DNA from: Crassostrea angulata
Taxonomy: Eukaryota
Direction: 5' to 3'
DNA: 64,000 nucleotides
Assembly (NCBI RefSeq): GCF_025612915.1
Contig: NC_069115.1
Location: forward strand, 8,359,492 to 8,423,491
In this document: piece by piece, positions 14,301 to 53,635 of the stretch
Layout: the number at the start of each line of letters is the position of its first letter
How positions within the stretch are numbered: the stretch's first letter is position 1
Translations under genes and position numbers: made by a program
Notes under the pieces: generated by a model
Told to the model about the DNA's origin: nothing
Databases searched by the model: none
What the model saw: the letters and a program-made list of their open reading frames with translations, nothing else

Positions 14301-17300
14301 GGTGGTGTTACAAGAGTACCACAACAACTATTGATTGTAATAGTACATCAGTATTTGGTTTGGTTGTCAGGTGGTGGTGTTACAATAGTACCACAACAAT
14401 GATTGATTGTAATAGTACATCAGTATTTGGTTCGGTTGTCAGGTGGTGGTGTTACAAGAGTACCACAACAACGATTGATTGTAATAGTACATCAGTATTT
14501 CGTTTGGTTGTCAGGTGGTGGTGTTACAAGAGTACCACAACAACGATTGATTGTAATAGTACATCAGTATTTGGTTCGGTTGTCAGGTGGTGGTGTTACA
14601 AGAGTACCACAACAATGATTGATTGTAATAGTACATCAGTATTTGGTTCGGTTGTCAGGTGGTGGTGTTACAAGAGTACCACAACAACGATTGATTGTAA
14701 TAGTACATCAGTATTTCGTTTGGTTGTCAGGTGGTGGTGTTACAAGAGTACCACAACAACGATTGATTGTAATAGTACATCAGTATTTGGTTTGGTTGTC
14801 AGGTGGTGGTGTTACAAGAGTACCACAACAACGATTGATTGTAATAGTACATCAGTAATTGCTTCGGTTGTCAGGTGGTGGTGTTACAAGAGTACCACAA
14901 CAACTATTGATTGTAATAGTACATCAGTATTTGGTTTGGTTGTCAGGTGGTGGTGTTACAAGAGTACCACAACAACTATTGATTGTAATAGTACATCAGT
15001 ATTTGGTTCGGTTGTCAGGTGGTGGTGTTACAAGAGTACCACAACAACTATTGATTGTAATAGTACATCAGTATTTGGTTTGGTTGTCAGGTGGTGGTGT
15101 TACAAGAGTACCACAACAACTATTGATTGTAATAGTACATCAGTATTTGGTTCGGTTGTCAGGTGGTGGTGTTACAAGAGTACCACAACAACTATTGATT
15201 GTAATAGTACATCAGTATTTGGTTCGGTTGTCAGGTGGTGGTGTTACAAGAGTACCACAACAACTATTGATTGTAATAGTACATCAGTATTTGTTCGGTT
15301 GTCAGGTGGTGGTGTTACAAGAGTACCACAACAACAGTGACCAGGCCCTGGAGGCTAAGTACGTCTTCCCGCTGGATGACATGGCCGCCGTGTGCGGTTT
15401 TGAGGCGTTCATCAACGGGAAACACATTGTTGGGGAGGTGAAGGAGAAAGAGACAGCCCACCGGGAATACAAGCGGGCCGTCCAGGAGGGGCATGGGGCG
15501 TACCTCATGGACCAGGACGAGGAAACGCCGGTAAGATCAAGATGTTCACTTTAGACACAATGGTAATAATATGATCAAGGTCAATCAACATTGCAGTTTT
15601 ATTGAAAATAAAAGCCAATTTCAATACATTTGTACTATTTAAATATCATGGTATACTAAAATTCCCCTCTTGTGAATATATCACCAAAATTATTATGACC
15701 CACAAAGTTCACAGTACTATGACTCACAAAATTTAAATAAAAGTCACTACGAAAATTACTCATTGACAATTTCAATATTATTTATACAATGTATATTAAA
15801 ACATCTCATTTGTGAATCTATAACCAAAATTACTTTGAATCACAGAGTTAAGTATATTGGCAGTCATATCTTTGTTACTGTACAGGAGGTATTCACGGTC
15901 AGCGTGGGGAACCTCCCCCCGGGGGCTGTGGTGGTCATCAAGATCACCTATGTCACAGAGCTACAGGTGGACGGTGACCTCATCAACTTCCGTCTCCCAG
16001 GCAGCGTGGCGCCATGGAAACAAAAATATGTTGACGCACCGGAATTCAAAGACAAGGTCTCTGATTCAACATTGATTGTTTGAATATTTATTGAAAGCTT
16101 CTTAAAGATTAGCTACAGAACCATAATTCTATGTATAAAGGTTGGATAAAACTGTGCCCTAGAATCCATCATCACAAATTTTTCTTAAGAGCTACTGTTT
16201 TTTCGGTTTTTCAGGCAATGAATTTAATAAGAAAATGTGTCTTTTTATGTAAATGTAGGACTGGGACACAGTCCAGGTGGAAGATACCTGCTGTAGTGTA
16301 CAGGTGTATGTAGACATGCCCTTTGTTATATGTCTGTATTTTTGTCTACTCTATGTTATAGGACTGGGATACAGTACAGGTGGGAAACACCTGCTGCAGT
16401 GTACAGGTGTATGTAGACATGCCCTTTGACATCCGGAGTCTGGAGTGTCCCACGCATAAAGTACTCTCCAAGGTAATCTATAGATACACTGTACAGTCAC
16501 TGCTCTGATATTACCTGACTGATCAAAAACAATTAATGAACTGGTATTTTCTAAGATTAAACTTTGAACATTTTGATGACATGAGCATAATGGTTAAAAT
16601 TAATAAGAAACACATTGGTGCATTTCAACCTTGTTGGGGTTTTAGAGCAATATTTTTCATGTAAAATAATGTTTGCAGAGAACGGCCACTAAGGCTGTGG
16701 TGGAAATTCCAGACGAGTCAGACCAGACATTGGAGGATGGATTCCAGCTTCTGATTGGTTTAGCAGAAATCCACGTTCCGCGGATGTGGGTCGAGTCGGA
16801 TGAAGGAGAGTCGCAGGTAGTTACAAGGAATTCTCATGAAATCAATTACTTTTATTTTTCAGTCATATACTGACAGTAGATGGAAATTCATAACATATGA
16901 TTTAGATTAAGTAATTTACAAGAGAACCCAGGTATATGTTAGCAAGCAAATTGCAATGAGTATAACTTATTGTTACTTCATTACTTTGTCATAGAGTGAG
17001 TAACGTTTAATTTTATTACTTTACATCAAGTTGAAATTTAAAGTACAGCATGTATGACCACAGAGCAATTTAAAAAAAAATCGAAATTCACTGAAAGTAG
17101 ATGAACATTACATTAGGGTTATCTATATTAGGCATGCATGTTGACCTTTTACCCTGAGTTTGAGGCTGATGAGGAGTCAGAGGTTGAGGTCATCCTGATG
17201 ATTGACAGCTCCAACTCCATGAAGGACTCCTCCCACCGTGATGCCAAAAAGGCTGCTCTCCTTGTGTTACATCTCATGGATCCAACATGGAGGTTCAATG

Positions 17301-17329
17301 TGGTCTCATTCGGGACAGGTATAGTATGG

Positions 17330-17363
<34 letters not shown>

Positions 17364-20300
17364 TTAATTTATGGATATAGCAGTGTATTACCGGTAATTG
17401 TTTTTACAAACATACTGTTCCGGTTTATTTTCAGAGAATGTATTTCTCCCTTTTACTCTTGCAAACAGTTTTGCCCAGTTTTTGAATTGTGAGTTATTAT
17501 AAATGTACCTGTTGTAACTATTTGTCTTTTTTTTTTAGCATTCACAGAACTTTTCCCATTGAGTCAACCAGCCAGTAAATTCAATGTACAGACAGCAAAG
17601 CAGCATATTCAGGTCTGCATTTCACACAGGAAATATTATTTGTAGGCTTGCATGTTGTCGTTTAAGGTAATTTAAAAGAAAAAATTGTAAAAAGTTTGAC
17701 ATCTGTTGCAGAAATTACAAGCAAACCAGGGTAATACTGAACTCTACAGACCCTTACACTCTTACTACCTTCTTAAACCAGAGAGTTCCACCAGGAATAT
17801 TTTTCTTTTCTCTGATGGCTATATCAACAATGATGAGGATACCCTGGCCAAAGTTTCCCAGAATTCTCAACACACAAGGATCTTCACCATGGGAATCAGG
17901 TTTCTTAATTAAAAACTTCTTCTTTAAAACTTCAACACTGGTGTGAAAACATTTATCTGAGTGTCCTTGCATATTTTTCAGTTATTTAATTTAAAACTGT
18001 AACAGTTTTGATTACATTAAGTAAAGATTAATATGTATGATGTGCAGAATCATACCCTAATCTTTGGTAGGAAAAAAATGTACAATAACAATTGAAACAT
18101 TTTCTGTAAGTTTGAATGGTCAGGTGTAAAATGAAAAAAAAAATGATCAGGGTTTTTTTCCGTAATATTTCAATATTATGATATATGATAGAATAGTACA
18201 ATTAATATGGTTCGAGAGTGTTCGACTTTGTATTTGTTCAACTTTGTATTTCTGCCCACAGCTCTGTAGCAAACCGTCATCTTCTGAAAGCAATATCCAG
18301 GGTTGGAGCAGGTTCCTATGAATTCTATGATTCCAAGTTCAAATCTAAGTGGGAAGATAAGGTAAATTTTATGATACTCATTTCAAGTTTAAATCTAAGT
18401 AGGAAGTTTAAATTCAATTGGGAAGATATGGTAAACTCATACACTCAAAAATAAAAATTTTGTGATAAATAAAGAAACAATGAAATCAATGGGATTTCCA
18501 AATACTGGTATTACCTAGTAAATGATCAAGGTGTTTGACCTTTGTTTTTTGAAATATTGAAGATAAACTGTTTTTGTGGGTTTTTAGGTTAGGTCCCAGT
18601 TACAGAAAGCGGCCCAGCCGGTGCTTACCTCAGTATCGGTAGACTGGCGCCATGACGACCAGCACCCCGCACCAATACAAGCTCCGGAACAAATCACCGC
18701 TCTGTTCAGCAGCTCACGCCAAGTGATCTACGGATTCGTGGACAACTGCTACATGGTGACGTACAATCTCTTTTATGTTTGATTTCATTCCTACATAACT
18801 CTATAATGGTTTAATAAGTGTCTTTGATCTTGAATTTGTAACGTGCATCCTTTGATTAGTTACTAATGGTAACCTGACAACCCTTGAATATTTAGGTGGT
18901 TATATTAATTATCTAAATTTTCATCATTTTGTACACTATCAGATGTGTGTAGTATATGATTATCTGTTTTTCTCTTGAAATACAGGCTACTTTAAAAGCA
19001 AAGATTGGTGGTCAGGAGATATCTACTGTTGTCTCGACCTCTGACCTCAGTGTTACTAAGGGCAAGGTAAGAGATTGTTAGTAATGCATGAAATAGCAGC
19101 CGTTTTTTCACTGTTTATCATTTCCATGCACTTTCGTTCCAAGTTTTTCTTAAGTGATAATTGAATGCATGTAGTTCTTAATAATTCTTAATCAGAGATT
19201 GTTGAATATTTTTCTTATCACTGAAATCATGTGACTGTTTATTTTTGTAGTTGATGACAACCATGGAAGACTAATTATTGTCTTATTATATTAAACACTG
19301 TCAGATATTTTTATCTTTAGGGCTTAGTTCATTCTACAGTACAGAATGTATTAAATTTAAAGCAATTATTAAGCCTGCTGTAATTTTTGAGATGCTGCTT
19401 GTAGATGCTGCACAGATTAACTGCCAAGGGAGTGATCCGAGATTGGGAGGATGGAGTTCTCTCCCCTGATAGGACCAGTCATGAGGTAAATAATGGCAGT
19501 TTTATTCTTAGATCTTAAAGTTTTTAAAATTAGTTTTTGGCTTATATTTCTGGAGTTCAATTGACTTTAGTTAAAGTAAAATTAATGTACTTGTAACAAT
19601 TTTAACACCCCGAGTACAATAATTATTGAAACTAAATCAGCCAGTATCAGTTTCAGGTAGTAGCCTGCAATCTATGTAAACCAGTAGACTTTCAATTAAA
19701 TTTCTTTTTTTGGAAACTTTAAAGATTAATCATCATTAGTTATTTGAAAACAGTTTTTTTTACAAGGCAAAATATTGCTTTCACAAACCAGAATCACATT
19801 TCAGGAATAGCTTCCGATTCTACAATACTGCATGTGTTTGCTATCGCTTGTCTGTCACCTTTCGTCCTTTAAGCAGTCTAGATTGTGGTGTCAGCAAACA
19901 AAACATCAATGTATACCATTTATTCTCCGACCCATAGGCCCTTATCATATGATGCATCCTCATGATGCATATATTATGGCAAGAAAGACATAAAAAAATT
20001 TTAATGATCATAAAATGTAGTTAATATTTATTTTTTTGCTTTCTTTTCAACCCACAGGTTAAGAAGATGAACCTGAAACAATATGTCATCGAGCTGAGCA
20101 AGAGGTACTCCATTGTGACCTCACTGACCAGCTTTGTAGCCATTGAAAAACGAGAAAAGGTAAATGTTGTTTACTTTTATGAATCAAGTAGAATATGTTT
20201 GAAATTAAAGCAGGTGAATGGGGATGCTATGTCCCAGTTTTCATTTCAATTTCATTTAAGGTGACTTTTTGCTAAGATAGATAACTCACTGGAAATAGTT

Positions 20301-23300
20301 ACTCTGCATAATTGACTTATAGAATAAATAATTTATTTTTAACTGGGTTTTACAACGGAAAAATCTGGTCATTGAAATGGTGAAAATGGCGGGCAGGCAG
20401 GCGGGCTGCTGCCAAAAGGGTACCCTCATTGTACGGATAACTCCTCCTACAGTTTTCAAGATAGGAAGTTGTTCTTTTGTGGATCAATTATACATGTATC
20501 AGAGGTGTGCATATTGCTAGGATTTTGATTTCCGATGATTTATGAAAAAAATACCAGCTTTTGAACTTAGTCATTTTTTGGCAAAATATTGAATAAGGAT
20601 ACCCTCATTGTACGGGTAACTCCTCCTACAGTTTTCAAGATAGGAAGTTGTTCTTTTGTGGATCAATTATACATGTATCAGAGGTGTGCATATTGCTAGG
20701 ATTTTGATTTCCGATGATTTATGAAAAAAATACCAGCTTTTGAACTTAGTCATTTTTTGGCAAAATATTGAATAAGGATACCCTCATTGTACGGGTAACT
20801 CCTCCTACAGTTTTCAAGATAGGAAGTTGTTCTTTTGTGGATCAATTGTACATGTATCAGAGGTGTGCATAATGCTAGGATTTTGATTTCCGATGATTTA
20901 TGAAAAAAATACCAGCTTTTGAACTTAGTTATTTTTTGGGGAAAATATTGCATATAGAGTACCCTCATTGTACGGATAACTCCTCCTACAAGTTTCCAGA
21001 TAAGAAGTTGTTCTTTTGCAGATCAATTGTACATGAATCAGAGGTGTGCATATTCTATGATTTTGATTTTTGATAATTTATGAAAAAAAAAAAATACCAG
21101 CTTTTGAACTTGGTCATTTTCTGGCAAAATATTGCATATAGGGTACCTTCATTGTATGGATAACTACTCCTACAGTTTTCAAGATAGGAAGTTGTTCTTT
21201 TGCAGATTAATTGTACATATATCAGAGGTGTGCATATTCCTAGGATTTTGATTTCTGATAATTATATTATCTTCTCTCTCCTTGGCCCAATCTTGCTCAT
21301 CCTACACCCACAGAGTGCCTTTGGGTAAAGGGTGTGCAGTGACCTTAAACTATGTTTGAAAGGTTAAGGTCATAGCAGAATTATATAAAAAAATCCTTGT
21401 GGCATATCTTCTCTCTGTTTGGTCTAATCTGGCTCATACTTAACTCACAGAGTGTCTATGGTCAAAGAGTGTGCAGTTACCTTATATGAAGTTTGTAGGT
21501 CAAGGGTCAAGGTCATGTTGAACAACACAAACATCCTTTTCGGAGCATATTTTTTCTTTATTTTGGCTCTATGTGGCTCATACTTCACTGTGATAAAAAG
21601 AGCTTTTGAGTAATGGATTTGTAGTGACCTTGAACCAAGTTTCAAGGTCAAATGTGAAGGTCATAGCAGAACTCTATAAAAAAAAAATTGTGATCGAAGC
21701 ATATCTGATCTCCCTTTGCTCCAATCTAACTAATATAAAATGATACAAGGAACAGTTGTTCAGGTTAGCGGTGTGGCTGATTGGCCTCTTGTTTACAAGA
21801 TGAGGTTGCTATGATATCTATTTCAGGATGAGGTAATGATACAGGGTTGTCTCTAAGACCCGGGAGCCAGGGAATTCCCCCACCTATAATTCCTTAATTA
21901 CCCCCTTCTACTTTTTCATTTCCTCCTTCTACTTTAATTTTTAGAGACAACCCTGATGATATCACCAATATCTCAAGATGGTGTTAATGTTGTGGTGAAA
22001 TCTACTTCAGGATGAGTTTGACATGTGATGATACATGTATTAATTTCAGGATGGGGTTATTTTGTTGTATATTTCAGGATGAGGTTGATGTGCTATATTT
22101 TTCAGGATGATGCTGTTGTGTTCTATATTTCAGGATGAGGTTATCCCAGATTCTTTCCCAGATGTTGGGGATTTACTGATCAAAGAGGATGTAGATATGC
22201 TGAAATACCTTTCCTGGGACAATGAGGTAATGATCCAATTAAATCTTTCAAAATTAAAGAATTATGATTTTTGTTTAGTTATTATATGGCAGAAGGACTC
22301 AACACAAGACACAACACAATGAAATTTCTAAAGCTTTCAACTAACTGATTTTAACAGATTTAAAGGGACTTAGACACGATTTGAGCTCTTTTTTTTTCAT
22401 TTTTAATGTCTTGAGTGGTCAATAAGGATGTTTTTAATGCTTTTTCAAAATTTGAAAGTCAAATATCGAGTTACAAGCAAGATACAGAGGTTAAAATTAT
22501 TTGTTTTGTAAACAAAGCTCGAGTCTTGTTATTGGTTACATATGTCTTGTATTGGTAAACGTGTCAATCTAATGTTGCATTTTGTTGTTGGTAAAATTAT
22601 TTATAAACACATTGAATTAGTTTATCTTGTTTCCATACGTTATTTTGTCAAAGAAATGGTAATTTCTTTACTTTTCATTATTTGTAAACAATTAATTATA
22701 AGACTCAAGCTTTGTTTACATAACCTCTGAAAATAAATATTTTCTTAACTAATTTATTGAAAAACAAAATTATTAAGGAAGGAGTCTTTTCTGGTTTTCG
22801 ACTTGTCAAACGTAAATTTGATTAATTGTTCATTAAATCAAGATGAAAGGAAATTAAAATAGTATATTTTTCTTTCTTTTTTACTATCATACAACTTGGC
22901 ATAGAAAATTGTATTCAATGTTTAGAATGGAACAAGGACTATATTTTTGGCGTAGGAAAATATCACATGTTGCGCAATTCAGAATTGCTGCAGATTATAT
23001 ATATATAATGAGTCTGTTTTAGCATTTTAAAAACAATAACAATAATGTTGGAATTTTTTTTACTAATGTGAACTAATAATATGATACTTGGGTTTCAGAA
23101 TATGTTTTTAAAATATGATTTGCCTATCAAATAAAATTTTTATAAGCTTTTTAAAGCGCCCATTCTATACATTGATTTTTGTGGAAAAATCACTAATATC
23201 AGTTTTTCTCTCTTATGAAACGGTCAATATATTAGCTTTTCTGTCAATTTATATCTTTATATAAAGTCTTCATAATACATTAAAATTAGAAATGCTTTAT

Positions 23301-26300
23301 TATTGGAAGCATAAAAAAACAATCAAAATTTCTTCAAAATTTAAGAAATTTAGAGGAAATGCGGGCTAAGCAATATCAATTTTAGTATAAATATGTATTC
23401 CAATTTAGTAGTATAAGCTGATAGACACTCTCATGGTCTATGATTTCATTGAAGATTTGAATCTTCAAATCTTAAACAAATGTCTACAGAACTATAAAGA
23501 GCTACAATATTTTTATCACTCTTTACGTTGAGGGAAAAGGTAGTGACCTTGACCTGACCTTTATCCGAAAACAAAAAGGTCAAATTTAATTAAACTGATA
23601 GAATCATTAAGTAATATGATCCGTTTGACTGTGTCAAAATTTCATGCATTTCTTATTATAAGAAGTATGTTTGATAATGAAAAGACTCCATCCTTAATAC
23701 AGATTTTTTTAGGATTGGTGCATTTGTTACAAATCAAATTTAATATCCATGCAACATACAAATAAATGGCAACACAAAGTATTAGTTAATCTGAAAAAAC
23801 ATATTTGGGTCAGGGCAGGTAGGGAAAACCAAAAACACAACCTGTACTGCTTTGTAACGAACGTCGCATCAATTGTCGCATTGAATACTCCCTGGTAAAT
23901 CTATTCATATGGAGCGCAAAAGCCCTCGTGCATGAAATAACCAGTCTTAAAGTAAACCAGATTATACGAAAACTAACAGAAATTAACGAGGTTAAAAACG
24001 TAAAGAAATGAATTGTATTTCGCTTGTAATATGACTTATAACATTCAAATTTTGGTATATCATTCAATATACCCAAACTATGTTATACATAAAAATCAAA
24101 AATAAAATTTTCATTTAAAATCGTGTCTAGGTCCCTTTAAAGCACTTGAAAGCTTATTGATAAAATTAGGTCAACCAAAATTCATTGAACAGATCGTTTA
24201 AAACAAATTTTTAGATTAATTAAAACACTTTCTAGTTATAGAATTTAAGCCTTTTCCTGCTCAATGTCCAAGGCTGCCTATACAGGTTTTTCTGCAAAAT
24301 TTAATTTTTGTTTGTGTTGTTTTTCCATGTGAAAAACATATTAATACTTGCAAAAACAATTGAATTATTGAATTGATATTTTATTTATAATACGACTTGA
24401 GTTCGCATCCTCTTCTCTTTTGACTTTCTACAACTTCCAATAGTATATGTAGCACTTGCCACATATTTCTGGAATTTATCATATAGGAAACGAAAAATAC
24501 AGATTTGAAAAATAACCAATAAGATAAAACATGTATTCATTATCTAGCATTATATAATTATGTGAAGCTAACACTAAAAACAAAAATTGGTTGATGCAAA
24601 CTTAACCAGTTTATCTCTGGTAATTAGTGATATCATACCAACTAGAGTCATGGCCAACGAAAGTTGGTTCACAATATACAGAAAACTGTTGTTTTGTAAA
24701 CATGTCTAAATTTTTTATTCATTGACTGAAATAAGAAATGTTTTTACTACCGTAATTAGGCAGATACAACTTCCTATGAAGAGGACACATCATCAGAAGA
24801 AGGCACATCATCAGGAGATGAAGAAGAAGAAGAAAAAGAAGAATATGCAGAGGAATTGTATTCATTAGAATGCATGGTAAATTATGAGGTACAGTCCCTG
24901 AAACGTTCTACTTCCCCACTTGAACAGTAAACACACGCTGAGTGAATGGTGAACAGAATATGGTGAGCACTTATGAACGGTTAACAGTGAGCAAACGCAT
25001 AGTGCAAACGGAGCGCAAATGCAAGTGAAAAGTGAAATATAAGATTATCCTTGTTGTAATATCGTTATAAATGTTTACATTAAATTCTACTAAATGTGAA
25101 ATTCTGATTAATATGAAGACTCTGATGTGAAATGTAAGTTTCTTTCTACCTTTACACATGCGTTCTTTCCTCATTTTGTTGTAACTCTCAAAGACTGATC
25201 CTTTCACTTTGGAGTACCAAATGAAAATGAATGAAGCGGTACTTATTATAATGATAAGAGAATGCTGAACAAACGGTGAGTGCAAGGTGAAGGCTTTTTG
25301 AAAGCACAGTGAGCACTTTGTGAAGGATGAGTGCGAACGGACCAAAGAGCACAAGTTAAGGCATGGTGAGTACACTGTGAGGGCAGGGTGAACGCACAGA
25401 AAAATGGGAAAGTAGAAAGTTTCAGGGACTTTAAGAGTACGTAAATTTCTACCCGATCTAGTATTTTTGATGTTGAAATTTTTATCTGGTGAGACTGTCT
25501 GTCAGACGTTTTATATCTCTGTTTGGTATCTACTATGAATGTAATATGAGGGGTGTCCCAAAATAACCTACAAGGCAGAACACATAAGGTAATTTAAAAT
25601 CTGTTCCCTGCTATTTCATTAGACTTCAATTTTTCCTTCAATCACCATTCAAAAATTCAAACCTGTACTTTATTTATTTCTTGAAAAATGAATATTATTA
25701 AGTAACAACAAGTTATGCCAGGCAGCGCAATGTGACACGTTGAAAATGCCCAGTCAGACTCTATGTATTGGTGCTGAATCCTCAAAATCAATTACGATAA
25801 CATTTAGTAAATTTTATTTTCGAAAATATCTTTAAAAAAATATTTTCTTTTGCGCATTCAATATACATTTCTAGTTTTGGTTTATAAAATATTTTTTTAA
25901 GTACAAACAATCTGTCAACTCCAAACTTGCCCTGTATTTCATGTACTTGTTGTCTAATGTCCGACTTAACAAAATGTGTTGTTCAGCATTTTGATGTCCA
26001 TTTCTATCGACCAGGGTTTCTTTTGTAACTTACTGTCATCATTCTCGTCCCAATATTTTCAATTTTGTCAGACTACTAATTCACAAAATGCATTTCTAAG
26101 TTAATTTGTTAATTTATTTTACTTCAAAAGCCACTTTGTTTCAAGGTCTTTACAAAATGTTAGTTATTCAAATTCAGTTACCTCTGTGCTAGTAGCTGCC
26201 TCAAAAGCTTACATCGTAATTTTATTACGACTTAAACTTGTCAAAGAATGTGCTATAAAATCTTTGAAAGTTTTGTTACATTCAAAACATTTTCTCTGTA

Positions 26301-29300
26301 AAAAAAAAAATTATTAACAAATTTGAACATTTTTTTTATTTGAATTTGAAGATGGAAGAAGTGGGAGATTCCTATGAAGAATTTTTTGACGGAGGAGGAG
26401 GTGGAGGAGGAACAGAGAAAATTGAAAGTACTGAGGTATACATGTATATATAAATTATCATAACAGAAACTTGTTCCAAGGAGTCAATTCAGGTTGTGCT
26501 GCCAGGCCTAGATCATTAGATCAAAGGTCATTAGATGTTTCAATCAGGCCTGGCAACCACAATAGAATTATTTCATGATGATAAAATAATTATTATAATT
26601 TATGATGATGACTTTGGCTGACTACACAAGAGTCTCAATTGTCATCACGAATATTTCTTGCCTTAAACCAGTCTGGATGTAACAGGGCTTGGTCGTGATT
26701 AATATATAACATGATGATAAATATTAAATGATGATGAAATCATTACATAACCCATCTATTATTAAGGTAATAACATAACCCACCAATTATTAACTTTTTT
26801 AAAAGGTAATTTATTACAGAGCCCATATAAGGCCTCCAGATTACTTTAATTTTGATTGTTACTGAGTCTAAAATTTAAAGATTTAAATGTTGCAGGCAGG
26901 AACTAAACTTTTATTACAAGATAAATAAAGTTTTCTTATTAAAATTTTGAATAATCATAAATACCTGGTAATCATTACAGGGTTGTTCAATGTTGTCTGA
27001 TGATGATGAAGAAGACGACCTTCAACCCATAGTGATGGACATGGGCTCTCTCTTCATGAAGGCGGGGTTTGCTGGCGACGACACCCCTCGGGCCGAGTTT
27101 GAGACCACGGTAGGGCGACCCAGGCACCAGGGGGTCATGGTGGGCATGGGACAGAAGGATGCCTATGTTGGAAAGGAGGCCACAGGTAAGATAAATGTAA
27201 TCAAACAGGTTTCAGGTAGACTTGTGGAATCAAAGTCAATGGTAAGGCAATGAAATCATTGGTCACAGGTAAGACAATTTAATAAAAAAAAAAAAACACA
27301 GGTAAGATACTGTAAACAAAGGTCCAGATAAGACAATTTTTAAAACGTCACAGGTAAGATAAGTAAATCATAGGACACAGGTAAGACATGGTAATTTAAG
27401 GTTACATTACTTGTAAGACAAAGTGTTTGCTCTGGTAGGTTACATAAGACAGTGTGATTGTAGGTTACATGTAAGACAGTGTTTTAATTTATAGATTACA
27501 AACAAGACAATGTAATGGTAGGTTACAAAATACAGTGTGATCGTAAGTTACAGGTGATACATTGCAATCATAGTCACAGGTAAATACAGTTATGTAAATA
27601 ATTAAATATAGGATACAGGTAAGACAGAGTGGTGGTAAGTTTCATCTGAGACAGAGAGATAATTATTATTGTAGGTTAAAAAATAACCATTGGTTACAGA
27701 TAAGGTAATGTAAACAGAAGTCACAGGTCCCACTTAAAAAAGGACCAACAGGTTAGACTCACTCTCAGCTATAGGTAAAACAGTATGTCAGTCGTCATAA
27801 GTCACCAGATCACTCTCAGCTAGGTAAAACAGTATGTCAGTCGTCATAAGTCACCAGATCACTCTCAGCTAGGTAAAACAGTATGTCAGTCGTCATAAGT
27901 CACCAGATCACTCTCAGCTAGGTAAAACCATATGTCAGTCATCATAATTAGTCACCTGATATCTCAGATAGGTAAAACCATATGTCAGTCGTCATATAAG
28001 TCACCAGATCACTCTCAGCAAGGTAAAACAATATGGCAGTCGTCATAAGTCACCAGATCACTCTCAGCAAGGTAAAACAATATGTCAGTCATCATAATTG
28101 GTCACCAGATCACTCTCAGCTAGGTAAAACAATATGTCAGTCGTCATATAAGTCACCAGATCACTAGGTAAAACAATATGTCAGCCGTCATAAGTCACCA
28201 GATCACTCTCAGCTAGGTAAAACAATATGTCAGTCGTCATAAGTCACCAGATCACTCTCAGCTAGGTAAAACCATATGTCAGTCATCATAATTAGTCACC
28301 AGATCACTCTCAGCTAGGTAAAACCATATGTCAGCTGTCATAAGTCACCAGATCACTCTCAGCTAGGTAAAACCATATGTCAGCAGTCATAAGTCACCAG
28401 ATCACTCTCAGCTAGGTAAAACCATATGTCAGTCGTCATAAGTCACCAGATCACTCTCAGATAGGTAAAACAATATGGCAGTCGTCATAAGTCACCAGAT
28501 ATCTCAGATAGGTAAAACCATATGTCAGATGTCATATAAGTCACCAGATATCTCAGATAGGTAAAACAATATGGCAGTTGTCATAAGTCACCAGATCACT
28601 CTCAGCTAGGTAAAACAATATGGCAGTCGTCATAATTAGTCACCAGATATCTCAGCTAGGTAAACCAATATGTCAGTCGTCATAAGTCACCAGATCACTC
28701 TCAGCTAGGTAAAACCATATGTCAGTCGTCATAAGTCACCAGATCACTCTCAGCTAGGTAAAACAATATGTCAGTCGTCATAAGTCACCAGATATCTCAG
28801 ATAGGTAAAACAATATGGCAGTCGTCATAAGTCACCAGATCACTCTCAGCTAGGTAAAACAATATGGCAGTCGTCATAAGTCACCAGATCACTCTCAGCT
28901 TGGTAAAACAATATGTCAGTTGTCATAAGTCACCAGATCACTCTCAGCTAGGTAAAACAATATGGCAGTCGTCATAAGTCACCAGATGAGTAAAATAAGA
29001 GTTACTATTGAGGTTTTTCTTTTTACAAGTAGAATTTTTCAAAGTTTCTATTATACACATTTCATTTATTTCATTATCTTTGACTTTGGTAATAACTCTA
29101 TGCTACAGTAATTCAGTTACCATCATACAAAGATATTGTGAATTCAAGGTACAAAATGTTTGTGGAAATGGAAACTTAGAAAAGCTTACAATCATGACAA
29201 CTAATTCTAGTGTGTTCTTTTTACCAGGTTCCAAACCTATAGCTGGGAAAGTTTTAAAAGGAAAGTCACCAGGTATATTCACAAATGTACTACCAGTTAG

Positions 29301-31227
29301 TTTTAAACACATGATGATTCATCGCAAGGCATGATTACTCAGTTTGTTCTTTTAAGTTACTTTTATATTTTTGGACTGCAGGCAAACAGTGAAATTATAA
29401 CTTAATTAAATACAAATTTTAACTTAAATGTAATAGCTATGCATATCCAGTCCAATCCACACTTGGCAAAAGTTGTTTCCCTTCGCTGGGTCAACCCAAA
29501 GGTCAAAAGGGACAAAAACAACTTTTTCCTTCTAATTACGCAACCAAGTATTTTGGCGTTTTGTGATGAAATCTTTTTATTAGAATTTTATCTATTCCTT
29601 CGATATATGTGTTGCCTCATCTTGAGGCAATCAAAATAAGAACAGAAACGGAATTTTATTGTCAAATAACAAAGTTACTAACCTCTAAACTACAAAGGCT
29701 ACTGTGAGAAATCTATGGGTTTTTCCTCAAAGATGGCGGCCAAGGGACATAACTTTTGTAAAGCGTGGATTGGACTATTCCTAATTTGCCATTTTAACAA
29801 ATTTAAATGAAGAAAATTCGACACATACTGTTCTTTCTTTCAAAAAAAACCCCCATGTTCTTTGACTCTTGCTTTGCTTCATGCGTCAATTAATTATTTT
29901 AGGTAAATATCTTTACTAATCAACATTCAATTAAAGGTCCACACAATGGTTTGTGCATTTTACCTACCAGTATTAGTAATATATTTTGAATGTACATTCA
30001 GGTTCAGCATAAATTTATGGAGAGATTTTGAATAGGCCATGTCTTAATCAAACCCATGGGGATACTACATGTACATCTGGGAAAGACAACTATAATTTTA
30101 TTGTAATCTACATAGAGTACGTTAAAGTGACTTTAAATTTGATAAATAAATATACAATAATATATGAGCCCAATATTTTCCAGACTTATATATTTATAAA
30201 TTTATGCATATTTAATACATATCTACAATCAAAACAACATCTAGTCTATATTAGTTTTATTATGATACAGAAATTAATTATAGTAAACTTATTAAACTTA
30301 TTATAAATAAAATTTATGTGAAAAGAAAGAATAGTATTTTATGTGAAGAGAAAAAATAGTGACTTTAATTTATGAACAACATCTAATTACTGTACTTTCT
30401 TTATAGCTGATAAGGCCCAAGATAAAGTAGTGTTGCTTGGCAAAATGTCATCAGGTAAAAAAATTGATTCAGAATCAATTATTCAAATTTCAAATTTGAC
30501 TGTTAATTTCAAAATTTATTTAAAAAAAAAAAAGCTCTTTTAGACTTACTGTCTTACAAAAATTGGGGTTAAATAAATTTATTATTCTTTTCTTTGGTTA
30601 GTAGAAGAAATCAAGTCAAAAGTAACGAAATTAAAATCATAATATAAAAAATTGAGTAAACACACTGTCAGGCAATTTTTTGCCAATTATTATGTTGAAC
30701 AATATATGGCCATATTTGTTCAAATAACTTATATTTAAAAATGCTACAAAAAGTAATATCAAAACTGTTACCATGGTTACAGTAAATTATCAGTCAGACA
30801 TGTTTTTAAACAACTGGAACAAGAGAAATTAATTGTGTATTATTTTAATTAATAGAAAGGACGAAAAAGAAGCTAGCTGGTAAAGAAAAAAGTTACAGTA
30901 AAGTTTGCAGTAGTGATGAATCGGATGTTGATGATCTCGGATTTAATTTGTTTGGTGACGACGATGACGATGACGACTATGAGAGGCCGCAAAGTTTTAA
31001 ATCTACAGGCAAGTTTCTTTTGGTTTATGACATAATTAATACATTTACGTTAGCATAATTTTCTATTCAATGCCATGCAGTTCTGCAGAAATATCTATTT
31101 TGTTAAAAGGATTTGCTCTTTCAGTGTTGATTTGCTTCATACAGAATGTCAATGAATTATTATACCCCCCGCAAACAAAGTTTGGGGGGGTATATAGGAA
31201 TCACCTTGTCCGTCCGTCCGTCTGTCC

Positions 31228-31265
<38 letters not shown>

Positions 31266-34200
31266 CTGTGCAATCGTGTCCGGTCCATATCTTTCTTATG
31301 GAGAAACATTGGAAGTTCTTACTTCACACAAAGATTGCTTATGACCTAAGGGTGTGTCATGACCTTGACCCAAGGTCATTCGGGCAAGGTCAAGGTCACT
31401 GGCAGAAAAAGTGTAAAATTCGTGTCCGGTCCATATCTTTCTTATGGGGAAACATTGGAAGTTCTTACTTCACACAAAGATTGCTTATGACCTAAGGGTG
31501 TGTCATGACCTTGACCCAAGGTCATTCGTGCAAGGTCAAGCTCACTGGCAGAAAAAGTGCAAAATTCGTGTCCGGTCCATATCTTTCTTATGGAGAAACA
31601 TTGGAAGTTCTTACTTCACACAAAGATTGCTTATGACCTAAGGGTGTGTCATGACCTTGACCCAAGGTCATTTGGGCAAGGTCAAGGTCACTGGCAGAAA
31701 AAGTGCAAAATTCGTGTCCGGTCCATATCTTTCTTATGGGGAAACATTGGAAGTTCTTACTTCACACAAAGATTGCTTATGACCTAAGGCTGTGTCATGA
31801 CCTTGACCCAAGGTCATTTGGGCAAGGTCAAGCTCACTGGCAGAAAAAGTGCAAAATTCGTGTCCGGTCCATATCTTTCTTATGGGGAAACATTGGAAGT
31901 TCTTACTTCACACAAAGATTGCTTATGATTAAAGGGTGTGTTATGACCTTGACCCAAGGTCAATTGAGAAAGTTCAAGGTCATTGTTTCAAAAAAGCTAA
32001 ATTCTGTCTGTGTCATGTCTTGTATGAATGGAAATATAAGAAGCTAAAAATTAACAGTTTTCAAAAATAAAGCAGTTGTTATTTATAGAAAATGGACAGT
32101 GAAATAGATTCATCCAATATTTTCTATAATAGCAAAAATACACGCGTTATGATTTTTTTCTTAGCGGGGGGTATCAATTGTGAGCTTGCTCACAGTACCT
32201 CTAGTTTATATAAATATGTTTACTAAATTAAACAGATTTATCAAAATATTCATATCGTATCATGTACCTGGTGACATGTCGTATCATGTACCAGGTGACA
32301 TGTCGTATCATGTACTGGGTACTATGTCGTATCATGTACCTGGTGACATGTCGTATCATGTACCTGGTGACATGTCGTATCATGTACCTGGTGACATGTC
32401 GTATCATGTACCTGGTGACATGTCGTATCATGTACCTGGTATCATGTACCTGGTGACATGTCGTATCATGTACCTGGTGACATGTCGTATCATGTACCTG
32501 GTGACATGTCGTATCATGTACTGGGTACTATGTCGTATCATGTACCGGGTAACAAGTCGTATTATGTACCATATATTGTATTATGTACCGGATAACAGGT
32601 CAGTAGGAGATTTTAAATGTCTAAAGGAAACATAAAAAAAAATTACTGTATACAGGGAAATATTCCCCCCTGTTTTATTTTCGCCCCTTTCGCCCTCGTT
32701 GTCATTGGGCGAATTAATGACTGGGCAAGTTTCAATATCTCAAATTATCTGTTTTTAAACACAACTGTGTGCAGATGGGGCAAAACTTTAAGCAAGTGTA
32801 AGAAAGGCTAGTAATGAATTACACAATAAATTCAAATGTTAGTTATAAATGCATTGATTTGTTACTGTAAACAAAGACGACTGACCTTGGGCTACTAGGT
32901 ATTGTATACAGGGATATTTTCACCCGGTGTTATGTTTCCCTTTCAATGTCTTTCAACTTTTCAATATCAGGTCATGCACTCTATAATTATAATGATTTTT
33001 TTTTTGTTAAAGTTATAGGTTTAATAGTCCTTTATGACAGATTTCAGGCAGTTAGGTTGTCGTCGTTACAAATATTATGATTTAATTTTCTACTCCTTGT
33101 TTACATGACAAAGAATTGTGAGCCCTGTATCTTGCTTGTAACTCTACAACTGACTCTCAAATTTCATTTGATCATTAGATATACATTTCTAAAGCATTGT
33201 AAATAATAAAAACAGAAAATTGAATTTGACCAAAATCATGAGCGTGGTCCATTAAAATAAAATGATCTTTTACATTAATCAACTTCAGGAAGGATATCTA
33301 GTATAATTGGACAACCACTGTCTGCAAAAAATTTAAGAGTGGATACTTTTAAGCCACCAGAGGTACAACTCCAATCAGCTCCTTCTTCAATGTCTGGATT
33401 GGCATTACCCGGTGTGATGAGAGGGGGCGTTTCTTCCAGAAAGGTACATGGAAATGTGTCTAAAGGAGCAGTTCCAGCAGAGAAATCCAAAGGAGTTGGT
33501 TATGGGGCATCTGAAAGCTCTTTATCTGATCTAACAAAAACAGGATTTGGAAGGCTGTCACCACAGCCAACACAAGAAATATCTGAACAATCATTATTTG
33601 GATCAGGATTTGAAGTACCTCCACCGGAACAATCAAGAGATTTTCAATTTGGTCCATCATCACAAACAGGTCAGCCATCAGCACCTGCTGACCCAGTGTT
33701 TGGATCATCAACAGCAGGATTCGGAGCACGACCAATGATGGCATCACAGGCTATGGGAGGATCATTATTTGGATCAGGATTTGGAGCACCTCCATCGGAA
33801 CAATCAAGAGGTTTTCGATTCGGTCCATCACAAAGAGGTCAGCCATCAGCACCGGCTGGCCCAGTGTTTGGATCATCAACAGCAGGATTCGGAGCACGAC
33901 CAATGATGGCATCACAGGCTATGGGAGGATCGTTATTTGGATCAGGATTTGGAGCACCTCCATCGGAACAATCAAAAGGATTTGGATTTGGCTCCTCATT
34001 ACCCATGGTACAGTCATCAGCACCTCCTGTCCCAATGTTTGGATCATCAGCAGGATTTGGAGTACCACAACAGGCTGCTATGGGTGGATCGTTATTTGGA
34101 TCAGGATATGGAGCACCTCCATTGGAACAATTAAATGGATTCGGATTTGGTTCATCAATGGAACAGCCATCGCCACCTGGTGCTTCATCATTTGGGTCCT

Positions 34201-36890
34201 CACCAGCAGGATTTGGAGTACAGCAACAGACTTTTGGAGGATCATTATTTGGATCAGGAGGCAGAGCAATGCCACAAATATATTCACTACAGTCTGATAT
34301 GTCTTCAAGTGGTTTTGGGTTTGGAGTACCTAGAAATAGATCACAACCAGCTTCTCCTCCTCCTCCACCAGCCGCTCCTCCACTACCTCCTCCACCACCA
34401 GTAGGACAGTCCAGAGGGATTGGCTTTGAGGTATCACCAAGAAACGAAATGATTCCATGTGGACCTGAAATTATATCTAGAATGCAAGGAGCAACAGAAG
34501 GAGGGCTGCCACCAGCCGCTCCTCCTCCACCTCCACCACTGCATCCACAGTCATCACCACCAGCGCCTTCTCCACCTGCACCTTTGCATTCTTCACTTCT
34601 GCGTACACAATTTATGCCTCCACCGCCACAGTCTTCTCCACCACATCCACCAAAACCACGTCAATTATTGCAACAACAAATACAACGTGGAAAAATACTA
34701 AAAAAAGCAAGCCCGATCATACGCCCTGCTTCTTTTTGTGCAAATATAGCACTATCTGAGCCAATACTAGAAAGCCAACAGGAAATTACCCCATTATTAG
34801 ATCTTGAAGTTGATGAACTTTTACCTGATTTATACCAGAGACGTTTGGCAGCACCTCCATCTCCCCCGCCAATTTCAAGAAAAAAGTCGGAATCACCTAC
34901 ACCATTAAGTCAACAGTCTGAGAGTGATTCAGTGAGGGCTGTAAAACCTCGATTAAAAAAAAAAAAGCTGAAAAAAGAATTCACAATGGCACGTGATGCA
35001 GAAATTTCAGATGCAATTTCATATACAGAGGAAGAGCAAGATGCAAAGAAAAAACCATCTGGAGGTAAGTACAGACAAACATTAATTTGTTTTTAAATCA
35101 AACAAAATTTGTGTTCTGCAACTTACTATTATTTGGTAACTTTTGCTTTTATTTTTATATTCATTTGACAATGAGAGCAAATGAGGCAATAATAGAAAAT
35201 GTTGCAATAGATCCAAACATCCAAACAACACAGTATCCGTGTATAACATAACCATATAAAGCTTAACTGTTTTAAAAACTTAGTTTAAGGTATACATTTA
35301 CTCAGAATGAAAAAACATTTCACTGATGATAATGAAAAACCATCTATTCAGTGTTAAAGACATATCATGGTAGTGCTTCTTTTCACTTTCCAAAAAGTAG
35401 GTCAATGACCTACTTTTTGAGATAATGGCCATTGAATATTTTTTGAAAAATCAAGGAAAATCCCATAAAATTTTACACTATATCTGAAATTGTCTTAATT
35501 GTGAAAAAAAAAAATACAAATTGCGATCTGAATTTGAGAACTCAAACCCTGAGTAAACAACGTCCTTAATAATATTTCACAACACATCAAAATCATCATG
35601 TTGTAAATTCCTGTGCAGCATTATAGAAATAAGTTCTGGTATAGGTGTAGGTCACCTTAGCTGCTTTGGTAACAATTTAGTGAAAGTCAGTTAAATTTCT
35701 GAATTTTATATGCCAATCTAGGATGAAGTGCATGTTTAAAACACTTTGGTAAATTCAGACTTATTATATAAAATTTGTGTTGTAGAGTTCATCTTAAAAC
35801 AGTACTTAGCATCCCCTGATCGGAAAGCTAGAGGTCGTTCAATGGTGAGGCGGTCATTTACAGGAAAGCCGAAACAATCATCTAGTGAGGTGAGAGACTG
35901 TTTGCTTATTGATTGGAACATATGCATGTGTAGTAGGGTAAAGAGCATGGAAAGCTACTGCAGATATAGCACCATTACACAGTCAGGGTACTCAAAGTTA
36001 AAATAATGAGTTTTATAGAAATTATGACATACAGTCAGGCTTGGGGCGAATTACATTGTAAAGTAATGCATTGCATTACCATTACTTTATGAATTTGGGC
36101 ATTAAATTACCATTACCATTACTTGATTTTCTTGAAGTAATGCATTACATTACCATTACATGACTAAAGTAATGCATTACCATTACCATTACTTTGTTTT
36201 AAAAAATTAAAGCTAACTAAGAGTTTTTGTAAATGTTTCAAATATAAAACACTCTTTTAACATATCTACAGCTTCATGCTCAGTATCAGGTTCAAATTCA
36301 ATGACTATACAAGAGTCGATCATTCTTTATTTGCTCAATGTATAATCATCTTGTGGCATTATGAACAACTTATTACGTAAGTAAAATGAATAGATATTTA
36401 TATATAGACATTTGGCATGATACAATGTCAGATACAAAATAGAGACACAGAATTACATGCATAACAAAAAACAATTTATTGAATAATGTTGCGGTTATTA
36501 AAAGCTAAATAGAGATATTTCCCCAGATTACACAAATCTTTATAATTTTGGACACTTAATTGTATTAATTCATAAACAGATGGTTTTTCCCAGTAATATT
36601 CTTTCTATATTTTAATCGTATATCTTTTTACTGAGGACACTTTAAGACAAAAGATTGCTATTGCACTTTTTGATCGAAGTTTCAAAGGGTTCATCTTTTA
36701 ACTGCATCTTATTAGTTTGAAAATCTTCCCAGCTATACTAAATAAATGTTTTACAGGAGCAATCGAAGCTTGGACTGAAAAGTACTGTTTGACGATCTTT
36801 ATCTTAGAATATATTAATTGTGCAATAATAGAAAAAATACAAGAATCTTGTATTTTCTATCAGTCCAAACTAATGTACAGGATACTTAAT

Positions 36891-36949
<59 letters not shown>

Positions 36950-39900
36950 AGTAATTATTTTCAAATGGGTTATAATATTGGAAGTGATATTGATTTTCAT
37001 CGTGGATGGACAGTGCATTCACTTTGCTTTTAAAGGTGTATGTCTGTCTCCTATTCTATTGGGACATAGCGAAGGGAAGGGGATTGGGGTGTTTTGCACT
37101 TCTTATAACAATAGATTGTTTTGATACTTAGATTATCCTGGGGGCATAGTGTGTTGTTGACACATTTTTAATTGAAGTGCAAACTAATCGGAGTAAATTG
37201 TTTAAATGATTAAAAACTCTTAATAACAACACTCTTAAAAATGATATGAAATTGTGCTGTCATATTTAGTAATATTAACAATTCAAAAATGAATTTTTAA
37301 AAATCTTTTTTTAATAATACAATTAAATCATATTTATCCCAATAATTATCTCTTTCTCCTTTAAAATCAAATTTAATCAAATTCAATTTCAACTATTCAT
37401 TTATTCATCACATTTTTTAAAGTGAACATGCATAAATAAGCATAGTAATGCAAAGTAATGCCATGTAATGCCAGCATTACACTAGATTTTGGAAAGTAAT
37501 GAATTACATTACCATTACTTGTAATGCTAATTTAGTGGCATTACACATTACTAGCATTACTTTGAAATCATGTAATGCATTGCAATGCATTACCATTACA
37601 TTTAGCATTACCCCAAGCCTGCATACAGTATAACGAGTAAGTTCTGTCGTTGTTTATTTTCTGCGGTATTTTGTTCAGCTGCATGAATCCCTCTACTGAA
37701 ATTCTTGATCCCTGGGACAGGGGTTGAAGCTCTATGGTGGGACCAATATGGCCATATACTATTAGTTAAAATGTATTAAATCTTAGAAAATCTTCTTCTC
37801 TACTCCCACACATGTGGGCAAAAAACTGAATACATGGTTATGATGTCCACAAACTTATAATGTATTAAATCTTCTTCTTCACTCCCACATGTATTTTGGA
37901 AAAACCAAATTTTGAAATTAATGGTTCCTGGGTCAGTGGTTCGGCGGTAATGAAAATGTATTGATTAAATAAGTATTAAGTAAATGTACTATCGAACTTG
38001 AGAAAGATAAAGTCAAATATTGTAAAAAGTTAAGTTGTTAATTGCATGCGTTATTATGTTCACAATGTCCTGACGTTAAATTGTGAAATTGACTGCCCAA
38101 GCCATAGGAATTAAGTTGAGGTTTTTATTTTGGGGGGGTGGGGTAATTAGGGTAATTATGTGGGCTTTTCCTTTGCATTTTATACTTGTAATAAGCTGTA
38201 TGCATAAATGGAACTGTGATTATTATAAAAGATTGACTATTGAAGGCCTGCAGACTTTAGACTTCAAAATTAAGCTTAGAATTAAGCTGAAAATGCAAAC
38301 ACGGTCTGGTACTCAGGTGACCATAAGGCTTGTGGGCCTCTTGTTTTTATAACTCAACAATGAAATTGTTGAAAATAATACTAGGCATATGAATATTTTC
38401 TATTTTAAGAATGAAATGACAACACTGCTTTTACTGGATGTCACCCCTTTACCTCTTGGTGTGGAGGATGCAGATGGCAATTTTATTGAAATTGTTCCCC
38501 GAAACACCACCATACCTTGCAGAAAAAGCCAGGTCAGTGAGACTGTTAGTTCAGGGCTTTGCCTGAAACTGTGGATTCTTACTTGAATTTTATATTATAA
38601 TATGTGTAAAATTGCAAGATGCATAATTTATGTACACTTTGCAGATTTCAAAACTTTTTACTTAATATTGACAGATCTGTACTATTAATAATCAAACTTA
38701 ATAATAGAATATATGAGTTAGCAATTTTATATTCTCGCAATTTGATGCAAAATGGTCAATTCGCAGAATTACATGTAAATATTATAATAAATAAATCTTT
38801 AGTAATCAGTGTTATGGTTGCAGTTACTAGGGATGAGCCCTAGTCATTATTTGATCCAGCTGCGGGATGCATGTATCACTTTAGATCAAAAATATGTCAT
38901 GTATTAAATTTTATATATATCAATATAATAATGGCCAGTTATTTTGATAGGCTTCAGGTATGCTAAACTGATTGTACAGTAACTGTAATGTAATGGTTTA
39001 AAAATATAAAGCACACTCAGATTAAAGTTGTGGTAAATAATGAGAATACCATAATGATTCTTTAAATGAACTAAACAATCTTTTTTTATCAAGTGATCAT
39101 GTTTTGCAATTTTAGTGGTATAGGTATGTTCAAAAATTTTACTCAATAATTACCGTTCTGGAATTCACCTTTGCCTTTTTTTTGAATGCCAGTTAAAGAG
39201 ACATGGTGACTCAAACTTACATAATTCTTTTTTTGTAAAGATTTTTTATAAAATCAAAAAATTGGGAAGAAAGATAATCAAAGCCAAGTTATGTGCATTC
39301 ATCTGCACCAAAATGCAGACAAAAAATGTAATTTGAATGTCGGAAAAACGAAAATTACATGATCCAGAATGGTTTATAGTTTACGTCTAGCGTCATGTGA
39401 CTTTCTTCAACATCCATCTGTGATATTGGTTGCCAAGATATACATGTACCTTTGTTTGAATACAGCCGCCCTGTTCCTTTCTCGGGCGATCTTTTTCTTT
39501 ATGAAAAAACCTCGGTCTACCGACTTTTCGTTTTTCGTGGCTAGACTCCATGATTGTTTAATATGTTGTATATGCGCAATTGTAGAAGGAGGCACGAACA
39601 ATATTTACTGTTGGGCCAACAAGTAATTATATTTTTATCTGTAACAAATGAATTTTTACTTTATAAAACTTGTAATTTTGTGAAACTTCTTATGTTCAAG
39701 AACTGAACAAAATTTAGAAAAGCCACAGTGACCTAAAAATGTTGTTTTATCCAATTCACTTGTTTTTGCATCACCGTGTCTCTTTAATATTTTAATCATA
39801 TGATTATTTGACTGTAATATGCCATTAGATAAAATCTCAAAAACACATATCATACATGTACAATATGTGCAATACATGTACTACATATACATGTATCCTG

Positions 39901-53420: not shown

Positions 53421-53422
53421 GT

Positions 53423-53635
53423 ATGGAACAGGGAAATTTAGACAAAAATGGAGACGTTTCTGAAGAAACACAACCAGCGGATGAAGATGTTGCTAAGTCG
53501 ACTGGCGAGCATCACTCAACAGAGGAAGCTTCCGAGAAGAAAAAGAAGGTCGGGAGTTACATTCTCGGGAAAACTTTGGGCGAGGGATCGTTTGCTAAAG
53601 TTCGTCAAGGCGTCCATCTTTTAGCACATGAAAAG
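53423..53635 (+). CDS. HUNK: HUNK-like exon 1 (N-terminal extension, Gly-loop and VAIK lysine region)
   Basis: [71 protein letters not shown]; donor GTAAGA at 53636. Confidence 0.8.

Follow-up and report, generated by a model that had tools for sequence, protein, structure and literature searches.

What a piece of actin is doing inside the gene for a vault poly(ADP-ribose) polymerase is the question raised by a 64,000-nucleotide stretch of Crassostrea angulata DNA (contig NC_069115.1, positions 8,359,492 to 8,423,491; hereafter the window). An exon resembling the N-terminal part of actin lies at 26981-27185 on the + strand, within the PARP4 orthologue of Magallana/Crassostrea, which occupies approximately 6.4-43.1 kb of the window on the same strand. 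The modules of this oyster PARP4 follow the order BRCT, PARP, VIT, VWA, acidic linkers, actin piece, FG/proline-rich exon, Hsp70 substrate-binding beta-domain and MVP-interaction domain (MVP-ID). The reading preferred here, with a probability of roughly 0.75, is that the actin-like sequence is an actin-derived coding exon of PARP4.

Sequence and limits of the actin-like exon

The exon is 205 nt in length, or 68 codons plus one base, and runs from phase 0 to phase 1, covering approximately actin residues 5-59. It is bounded by the acceptor ttacag/GGT and the donor CAG/gtaaga. An earlier note on this DNA had described a 68-codon exon with TTACAG and GTAAGA splice sites and a likeness to actin over residues ~8-65, and its sequence, translation and splice sites are as described there. 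Human ACTB aligns to the exon at 67% identity over actin aa 8-65 (tblastn, E=2e-19), and the Pfam Actin profile (PF00022) matches with 40.2 bits against a cutoff of 27, over profile positions 2-54 of 410. The likeness to actin is real and far above chance.

The encoded segment comprises the beta-hairpin, whose phosphate-1 loop is degenerate, and continues through the D24/D25 region and the D-loop to the start of helix 55-59. Two parts of it, KAGFAGDD and the D-loop block, are identical to the corresponding parts of actin. The latter is a block of 17 codons (27110-27160, + strand) equivalent to actin V35-D51, that is, the D-loop and its flanks, in which the amino acids are invariant and the codons vary. 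The phosphate-1 loop reads DMGSL in place of actin's DNGSG, with D-[MAS]-GS-[LF] in the orthologues, and so is not intact.

A tblastn search of the 64-kb window with human ACTB (E up to 10) gave no second actin segment, either in 27186-30400, where the earlier note had also seen no remainder of an actin open reading frame (ORF), or elsewhere, and the phosphate-2, adenosine and hinge motifs of actin are absent throughout the window. About 55 of the ~375 residues of the four-subdomain actin ATPase fold remain. When the isolated module is modelled with AlphaFold, hardly any secondary structure is predicted (pLDDT 55, pTM 0.14), a low confidence that would fit a peptide-like or partner-dependent module. 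Because only about 55 residues are left, the nucleotide loop is degenerate and the modelled module is hardly structured, the product of this exon cannot be an actin ATPase. Two other candidates were discarded: a complete nested actin gene, since no other actin segment is present in the 64 kb, and a minus-strand ORF over the exon (26990-27211), which mirrors a coding exon rich in GC.

The exon as a probable part of the PARP4 message

The splice phases provide the first line of evidence that the exon belongs to PARP4. Every exon that follows the VWA region as far as 26435 is of phase 0-0, and every exon within 29228-35064 is of phase 1-1. The 205-nt exon is the sole 0-to-1 adaptor between these two sets, and skipping it would therefore shift the frame. 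A chain of 12 exons drawn through the actin-like exon gives an uninterrupted reading frame of 984 codons, and its splice sites are canonical except for one GC donor; the chain from the Hsp70-type exons to the MVP-ID exons is open as far as the TAA at 43102-43104. The earlier note had placed the exon in phase between two acidic linker exons and a set of small downstream exons. The phases hold, both for 24760-24876 and 26352-26435 (0-0) and for the actin-like exon (0 to 1), but a mini-exon at 29228-29272, before the one at 30407, had been overlooked.

The second line of evidence comes from proteins bearing the module, which were gathered by an exhaustive protein search with a profile of the exon family. 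M. gigas K1PUC2, named 'Poly [ADP-ribose] polymerase 4', has the architecture BRCT-PARP-VIT-VWA-Actin(2-54)-HSP70(417-517), and aligns exon by exon to the window at ~95-100% identity. Mytilus edulis CAG2205451.1 has BRCT, PARP, VIT and VWA domains followed by an acidic region, Actin at 1292-1355 and a proline-rich region. In M. edulis assembly GCA_905397895.1 (locus L008, 64505-64618), a 340-aa PARP4_MVP-ID model starts 113 bp past the end of a 1730-aa model, and the two look like one PARP4 gene divided by annotation. In the Saccostrea model named 'putative actin-29', the module is spliced to homologues of the mini-exon and of the acidic exon, followed by a proline-rich stretch; the homologue of mini-exon 29228-29272 spliced to the actin-like exon there is GAKPVVGRVLEK. 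Acidic exons homologous to 30856-31008 come after the actin-like exon both in Saccostrea and in the ENA long-read locus L001/L003, and polyproline tracts come after the module in the oyster, Saccostrea and Mytilus. The earlier note's placement of the exon in a PARP4-like coding chain is thus borne out by the phase logic, by the K1PUC2 and CAG2205451.1 models, and by C-terminal exons that correspond to the MVP-interaction domain of PARP4.

The same region could instead hold two genes, with an internal promoter at ~26.3-27.0 kb and a transcript beginning at ATG 26352 or ATG 26990, the BRCT-PARP-VIT-VWA part ending separately. The second product (acidic, actin-N, FG/Pro-rich, Hsp70 substrate-binding domain, MVP-ID) would be a vault-targeted, non-enzymatic protein. 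An ATG does open exon 26352, its Met being kept in K1PUC2, and another is found near the start of the actin-like exon; the ORFs of the ENA metagenome contig L002 and of P0030 start with a Met in the acidic tract that is fused to the actin-like part; and annotators have split the locus, into 'putative actin-29' and an MVP-ID protein on separate short-contig models in Saccostrea and into the two adjacent models in M. edulis. However, the Saccostrea splits are due to contigs of 6-8 kb, and the two halves are fused in both full-length models, K1PUC2 and CAG2205451.1. The Met at 26990, which aligns with the actin start, is not conserved, being replaced in K1PUC2 (GCLILSDDD) and variable among Logan variants, and in each of the six loci studied the reading frame is open 5' of the core of actin-like sequence. 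Moreover, the actin-like exon is the only downstream partner of the phase-0 exons before it, the conserved 22134-22226 among them, and no other terminal exon was observed for them. A division into two genes is considered unlikely. So is the separate, nested actin-related transcript that the earlier note had offered as an option, given that there are no more actin exons, that Met 26990 is unconserved and that skipping the exon breaks the frame.

Several observations weigh against assigning the exon to PARP4. Because a search with junction-spanning peptides gave no transcript-derived ORF (best matches covered <=46% of the query), the evidence for splicing consists of gene models, phases and conservation. 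Both full-length gene models are computational, and homology-guided predictors prefer any actin-like ORF. K1PUC2 does not contain the first Hsp70-type exon, most of the FG/Pro-rich exon or the MVP-ID exons, and includes an extra exon from 52.8 kb. To join 35064 (phase 1) to 38410 (phase 0), a bridging exon is needed, for which 35810-35889 is a candidate. Among the orthologues, L001 has no GT at the conserved donor, and its nearest GT, 2 nt downstream, would give phase 0. PARP4 exons around the actin module are demonstrated in Magallana and Mytilus only; when PARP4, Hsp70 substrate-binding domain and MVP-ID queries were run against L001, L003 and L007 (tblastx, tblastn), only the actin-like exon was found within +/-10 kb.

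Orthologues, age and selection

The exon has orthologues in Saccostrea (L005), Mytilus coruscus (L006), M. edulis (L008) and M. galloprovincialis, and others were retrieved from an ENA metagenome contig (L002), two ENA long-read assemblies (L001/L003 and L007), and JGI and Logan ORFs. They align without gaps. The window, Saccostrea, L002 and L007 agree in the codon at which the phase-1 donor falls, and the Mytilus donor is 9 nt downstream and still of phase 1. Because the exon is common to oysters and mussels and its synonymous sites are saturated, the capture of the actin fragment is old, predating at least the divergence of these two groups. A capture from a retrocopy whose parent could still be compared, as proposed in the earlier note, does not agree with these two features. 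A young retrocopy was rejected on the same grounds, and also because a fragment only is present.

Across six lineages and the whole exon, the pairwise ratio of nonsynonymous to synonymous substitution (dN/dS) is 0.025-0.095 where dS can be estimated, and pairs with saturated synonymous sites have a ratio of proportions (pN/pS) of <=0.30. In the D-loop block, none of the 17 codons shows an amino acid change while 14 show nucleotide changes, with 7-10 third-position differences per pair. In the N-terminal part of the exon, amino acid changes are seen in 19 of 29 codons. These comparisons show the exon to be under purifying selection, strictest on the D-loop peptide and looser on KAGFAGDD.

An invariant block of this kind could in principle be kept by repeated gene conversion from true actin genes, the exon being otherwise a tolerated spacer. 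Paralogues are known to undergo conversion, and actin genes exist in many copies that closely resemble the exon across the D-loop block. Family-specific replacements flank the block on either side, however: actin I34 is replaced by T/A, D56 by K/F/T/Q, and Q59 by T/S/I (C in M. edulis P0135). None of these reverts in the loci examined, and the change from DNGSG to D-x-GS-L/F is similarly stable. Replacements that do not revert on either side of the block argue against gene conversion, the tracts of which would need, in each lineage, to cover just those 51 nt. In addition, the low dN/dS (0.03-0.09) covers the whole exon. Gene conversion is therefore regarded as highly improbable, and purifying selection on a coding exon is preferred.

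The searches also yielded other proteins with this part of actin. Four ENA contigs of 21-61 kb (P0129, P0137, P0147 and P0150) encode proteins with 3-6 tandem degenerate copies of the actin ~10-60 segment. A 2.0-Mb ENA contig (P0148) has an ORF of 484 aa in which an acidic tract is followed by an N-terminal segment of actin, extending to ~residue 68, and then by long Pro/Ala-rich repeats, a layout that resembles the bivalve linker.

Organization of the host gene

The N-terminal two-thirds of PARP4 is encoded at 6467-20159 (+ strand), with BRCT at 6467-6667, the PARP catalytic domain at ~9303-11285, VIT at ~13203-16077 and VWA at ~17132-18361; the exons that follow VWA (18588-20159, + strand) are all of phase 0. 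In the window exons, the PARP catalytic domain (PF00644) scores 78.6 bits, BRCT_2 scores 26.3 bits (slightly below the cutoff of 27.3), VWA_3 and VWA score 33 and 27.2 bits respectively, and the match to VIT is partial. The scores of K1PUC2 are higher for VIT (124 bits) and VWA_3 (67 bits), and BRCT and PARP exceed their cutoffs in both K1PUC2 and the Mytilus model. The positions of the H, Y and E catalytic triad can be seen by eye in the motifs LFHAS, GIYFAS and DEFVVY. The features of PARP clade 5 are all present: BRCT with PARP, VIT and VWA after the catalytic domain, and a C-terminal MVP-interaction domain (PF26156/MINT). A quantitative PCR primer listed for 'PARP4 CGI_10013249' (PMC8303352) maps to 18293-18314 with one mismatch.

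The linker that follows is made up of small exons on the + strand. A 31-residue exon at 22134-22226 (phase 0-0) is conserved in Mytilus PARP4, and is followed by an acidic exon at 24760-24876 (phase 0-0) and an acidic/poly-Gly exon of 28 residues at 26352-26435 (phase 0-0), which is joined straight to the actin-like exon in K1PUC2. Downstream of the actin-like exon are two mini-exons, at 29228-29272 ((G)+14 residues) and 30407-30454 (15 residues), and a basic-then-acidic exon at 30856-31008, drawn with a GC donor, all three of phase 1-1. A low-complexity exon of 1776 nt (33289-35064, phase 1-1) has the best donor of the region and encodes GFG/FG-type repeats, then polyproline tracts; Nucleoporin_FG scores 25.9 bits here, under its cutoff. 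The candidate bridging exon at 35810-35889 (+ strand, phase 1 to 0) would join 35064 to the first of the Hsp70-type exons.

The gene ends with four exons on the + strand (41369-41423, 41551-41660, 42128-42227 and 42752-43104), the last of which contains the TAA stop (43102-43104). The last three match a Saccostrea cucullata MVP-ID protein, and 41369-41423 matches the N-terminal part of the same protein. Over 42113-43101 the identity to this protein is 64% (E=2e-47), and its precomputed Pfam annotation includes PF26156 PARP4_MVP-ID. The terminal exons are also collinear with residues 1582-1706 of the 1724 of human PARP4 (PDB 11jf, 9bw6, 9bw7), albeit weakly (E=0.44). A bivalve-only profile of the C-terminal domain, from which the N-terminal half was lost, did not retrieve PARP4 from the PDB.

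An Hsp70 substrate-binding domain in the same linker

Between the FG/polyproline exon and the terminal exons, four exons on the + strand (38410-38532, 39976-40080, 40342-40459 or 40342-40453, and 40669-40757) encode an Hsp70 interdomain linker, LLLLDV, and a substrate-binding beta-domain. Together (38410-40757) they match Pfam HSP70 (PF00012) at positions 381-516 of 599 with 66.9 bits, corresponding to the linker and a complete beta part of the substrate-binding domain (SBD). A tblastn search of the window with HSPA8 gave no segment of the nucleotide-binding domain, and the full Hsp70 combination of ATPase, SBD and lid is not present. In Mytilus, the 14 kb available downstream of the actin-like exon contained no match to the Hsp70-SBD exons.

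The linker had been supposed in the earlier note to collect gene fragments of actin-fold and Hsp70 proteins. An Hsp70-derived part is indeed present, but it consists of a complete SBD and not of fragments; because it is the peptide-binding domain and not the actin-fold ATPase half, the actin-fold theme fails. PARP4 CGI_10013249 stands among the thermal-responsive genes of a table composed mostly of Hsp70-family members (PMC8303352), and the SBD inside PARP4 probably accounts for its place there.

Possible functions of the D-loop module

The proposed explanation is that the long linker between VWA and MVP-ID took up coding sequence from the 5' end of an actin gene, which was exonized there before oysters and mussels split. 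It would now be a constitutive coding exon of oyster PARP4 from which actin function has been lost, selection having kept the D-loop peptide and the ATP-binding loop having decayed. The route of origin, exon shuffling or exonization, is ordinary. Its content, a selected actin D-loop fragment beside a captured Hsp70 peptide-binding domain, is unusual.

In actin, the D-loop inserts into the neighbouring subunit, and a number of toxins and actin-binding proteins recognize it. That selection has held the D-loop to its exact sequence suggests a displayed epitope imitating that face of actin. Tentatively, and as a possibility that is itself in some doubt, the module may be viewed as such a binding epitope, carried on a flexible acidic/FG/polyproline tether. 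It would engage the partners of the D-loop face, such as D-loop-binding factors or, on another actin subunit, the hydrophobic cleft, and this engagement would either link the enzyme to the actin system or recruit partners to it. In human vaults, the C-terminus of PARP4 is anchored to MVP in the lumen, and long disordered linkers lie between its folded domains (PMC12280208). Two considerations of mechanism count against an epitope: on its own, a D-loop peptide should have a low affinity, and a module confined by its tether to the vault lumen may be out of reach of filaments.

The proximity of the SBD raises a different possibility, that the D-loop peptide, with its hydrophobic VMVGM core and basic flanks, is a tethered client of the neighbouring domain. 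The peptide would fill the SBD until displaced by unfolded proteins, making a stress-sensing switch of the vault PARP. The actin module and the SBD are present in one linker in Magallana, and selection acts on the D-loop block and not on the ATP-binding loop. The block has the general character of Hsp70-binding motifs (DnaK/Hsp70 specificity), and the pocket positions of the SBD, compared by eye with DnaK numbering, look largely retained. The gene has also been handled as thermal-responsive beside Hsp70-family genes in oysters (PMC8303352). However, the SBD gave no match over the 14 kb available beyond the Mytilus exon, the oyster gene has neither an ATPase domain nor a lid to regulate binding, and the conservation of KAGFAGDD is not explained by a client peptide. 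A tethered client is improbable, and the displayed epitope is the likelier of the two, though tentative.

A bolder and quite speculative proposal would combine these elements, the bivalve vault PARP being a sensor with two captured 'bait' modules on a lumenal tether: the D-loop face of actin, acting as an effector decoy or as a client that gates the Hsp70 domain, and the Hsp70 peptide-binding domain itself. As a decoy, the D-loop would be bait for pathogen effectors and proteases directed at this part of actin (crosslinking at K50, cleavage at G42/V43, oxidation of M44/M47). If the vault PARP were such a sensor, ADP-ribosylation would respond to damaged actin or to the load of unfolded proteins, and an actin insertion at the equivalent place in Anaeramoeba (see below) would hint at a recurrent link between vaults and actin.

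To our knowledge, no function has been agreed upon for vault particles or for the vault PARP. A vault PARP with a strongly selected actin D-loop peptide leads to testable hypotheses on what the tether of the enzyme binds, and the adjacent polyproline tracts and Hsp70 peptide-binding domain enlarge this set. The locus is also a clean case of exon shuffling, in which a 17-residue epitope of a highly conserved eukaryotic protein has been kept and the fold discarded.

Comparison with known systems

Like vertebrate PARP4 (human Q9UKK3; 9bw6, 9bw7, 11jf), the bivalve protein has BRCT, PARP, VIT and VWA domains, a long linker and a C-terminal MVP-interaction domain (PMC12280208, PMC2964712). Unlike it, the bivalve linker contains the actin 5-59 segment and FG/polyproline repeats, and in oysters also the Hsp70 SBD. 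The vault-PARP clade (PARP clade 5) has been defined by BRCT, a mid-protein PARP domain, VIT and vWA only (PMC2964712), and the word actin is absent from the paper on human PARP4 vault structures (PMC12280208). Neither paper mentions a module derived from actin or Hsp70 in human PARP4. In the literature searched, no description of the actin module, the FG/polyproline exon or the Hsp70 SBD in PARP4 was found, the gene appearing only in a table of quantitative PCR primers. The architecture is visible in public gene models, yet has apparently been described or interpreted nowhere.

With conventional actin (PF00022), the exon shares the D-loop block and KAGFAGDD, but it retains only profile positions 2-54 of 410 and its phosphate-1 loop is degenerate. 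The POTE-actin genes of primates have a complete, recent actin retrocopy at the C-terminus of an unrelated host protein, expressed as a fusion. By analogy, the oyster exon may likewise be seen as captured actin coding sequence, although it is a short N-terminal fragment, forms an internal spliced exon, and is ancient and common to oysters and mussels; it lacks the properties of a retrocopy-derived chimera of the POTE-actin type, namely recent origin, near-full length and absence of introns.

A second case of actin in a protein of related architecture is 'VWA5A' of Anaeramoeba flamelloides (KAJ6254333.1/KAJ3432468.1; P0143/P0261), a VIT-VWA protein in which actin lies between the post-VWA region and an FWKL-type C-terminal domain. 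In contrast to oyster PARP4, it has no PARP domain, and its actin is nearly whole, with residues ~42-375, a K/E-rich linker and then residues ~5-48. This actin, present in two assemblies, looks as though it is circularly permuted at the D-loop, and its place in the protein corresponds to that of the bivalve module. Anaeramoeba being a distant protist, the insertion presumably arose independently, unless it is an artefact of the gene models. Plant NLR proteins with integrated decoy domains have a fragment of a frequent pathogen target built into a host surveillance or enzymatic protein, and would offer an analogy only for the actin module of oyster PARP4.

Annotation and neighbouring features

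The actin exon of PARP4 is misnamed in database records, as 'actin, partial' in M. galloprovincialis (P0132, OPL32772.1) and as 'putative actin-29' in Saccostrea cucullata (P0265). Judging from the sequences, the tryptic peptide AGFAGDDAPR (K1PUC2 and Saccostrea; the window differs) and a further 11-residue peptide would be identical to those of actin. Estimates of actin or Hsp70 gene numbers in bivalves, whether proteomic or homology-based, could therefore be contaminated by the PARP4 gene.

The last 19 residues of K1PUC2 are identical (100%) to the translation of 52780-52836, ~10 kb past the PARP4 stop and a short way 5' of a protein-kinase-like gene, and this terminal exon of a 2012 model looks mis-joined. 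The introns of PARP4 contain tandem-repeat arrays at 13967-15337, 20376-20900, 31040-32040 and 32165-32632, which yield long spurious ORFs, such as a repeat ORF of 457 aa at 13967-15337. Downstream of PARP4, the multi-exon protein-kinase-like gene occupies 53414-62289 on the + strand, and between the two is a minus-strand gene with an acidic ORF (47611-48350).

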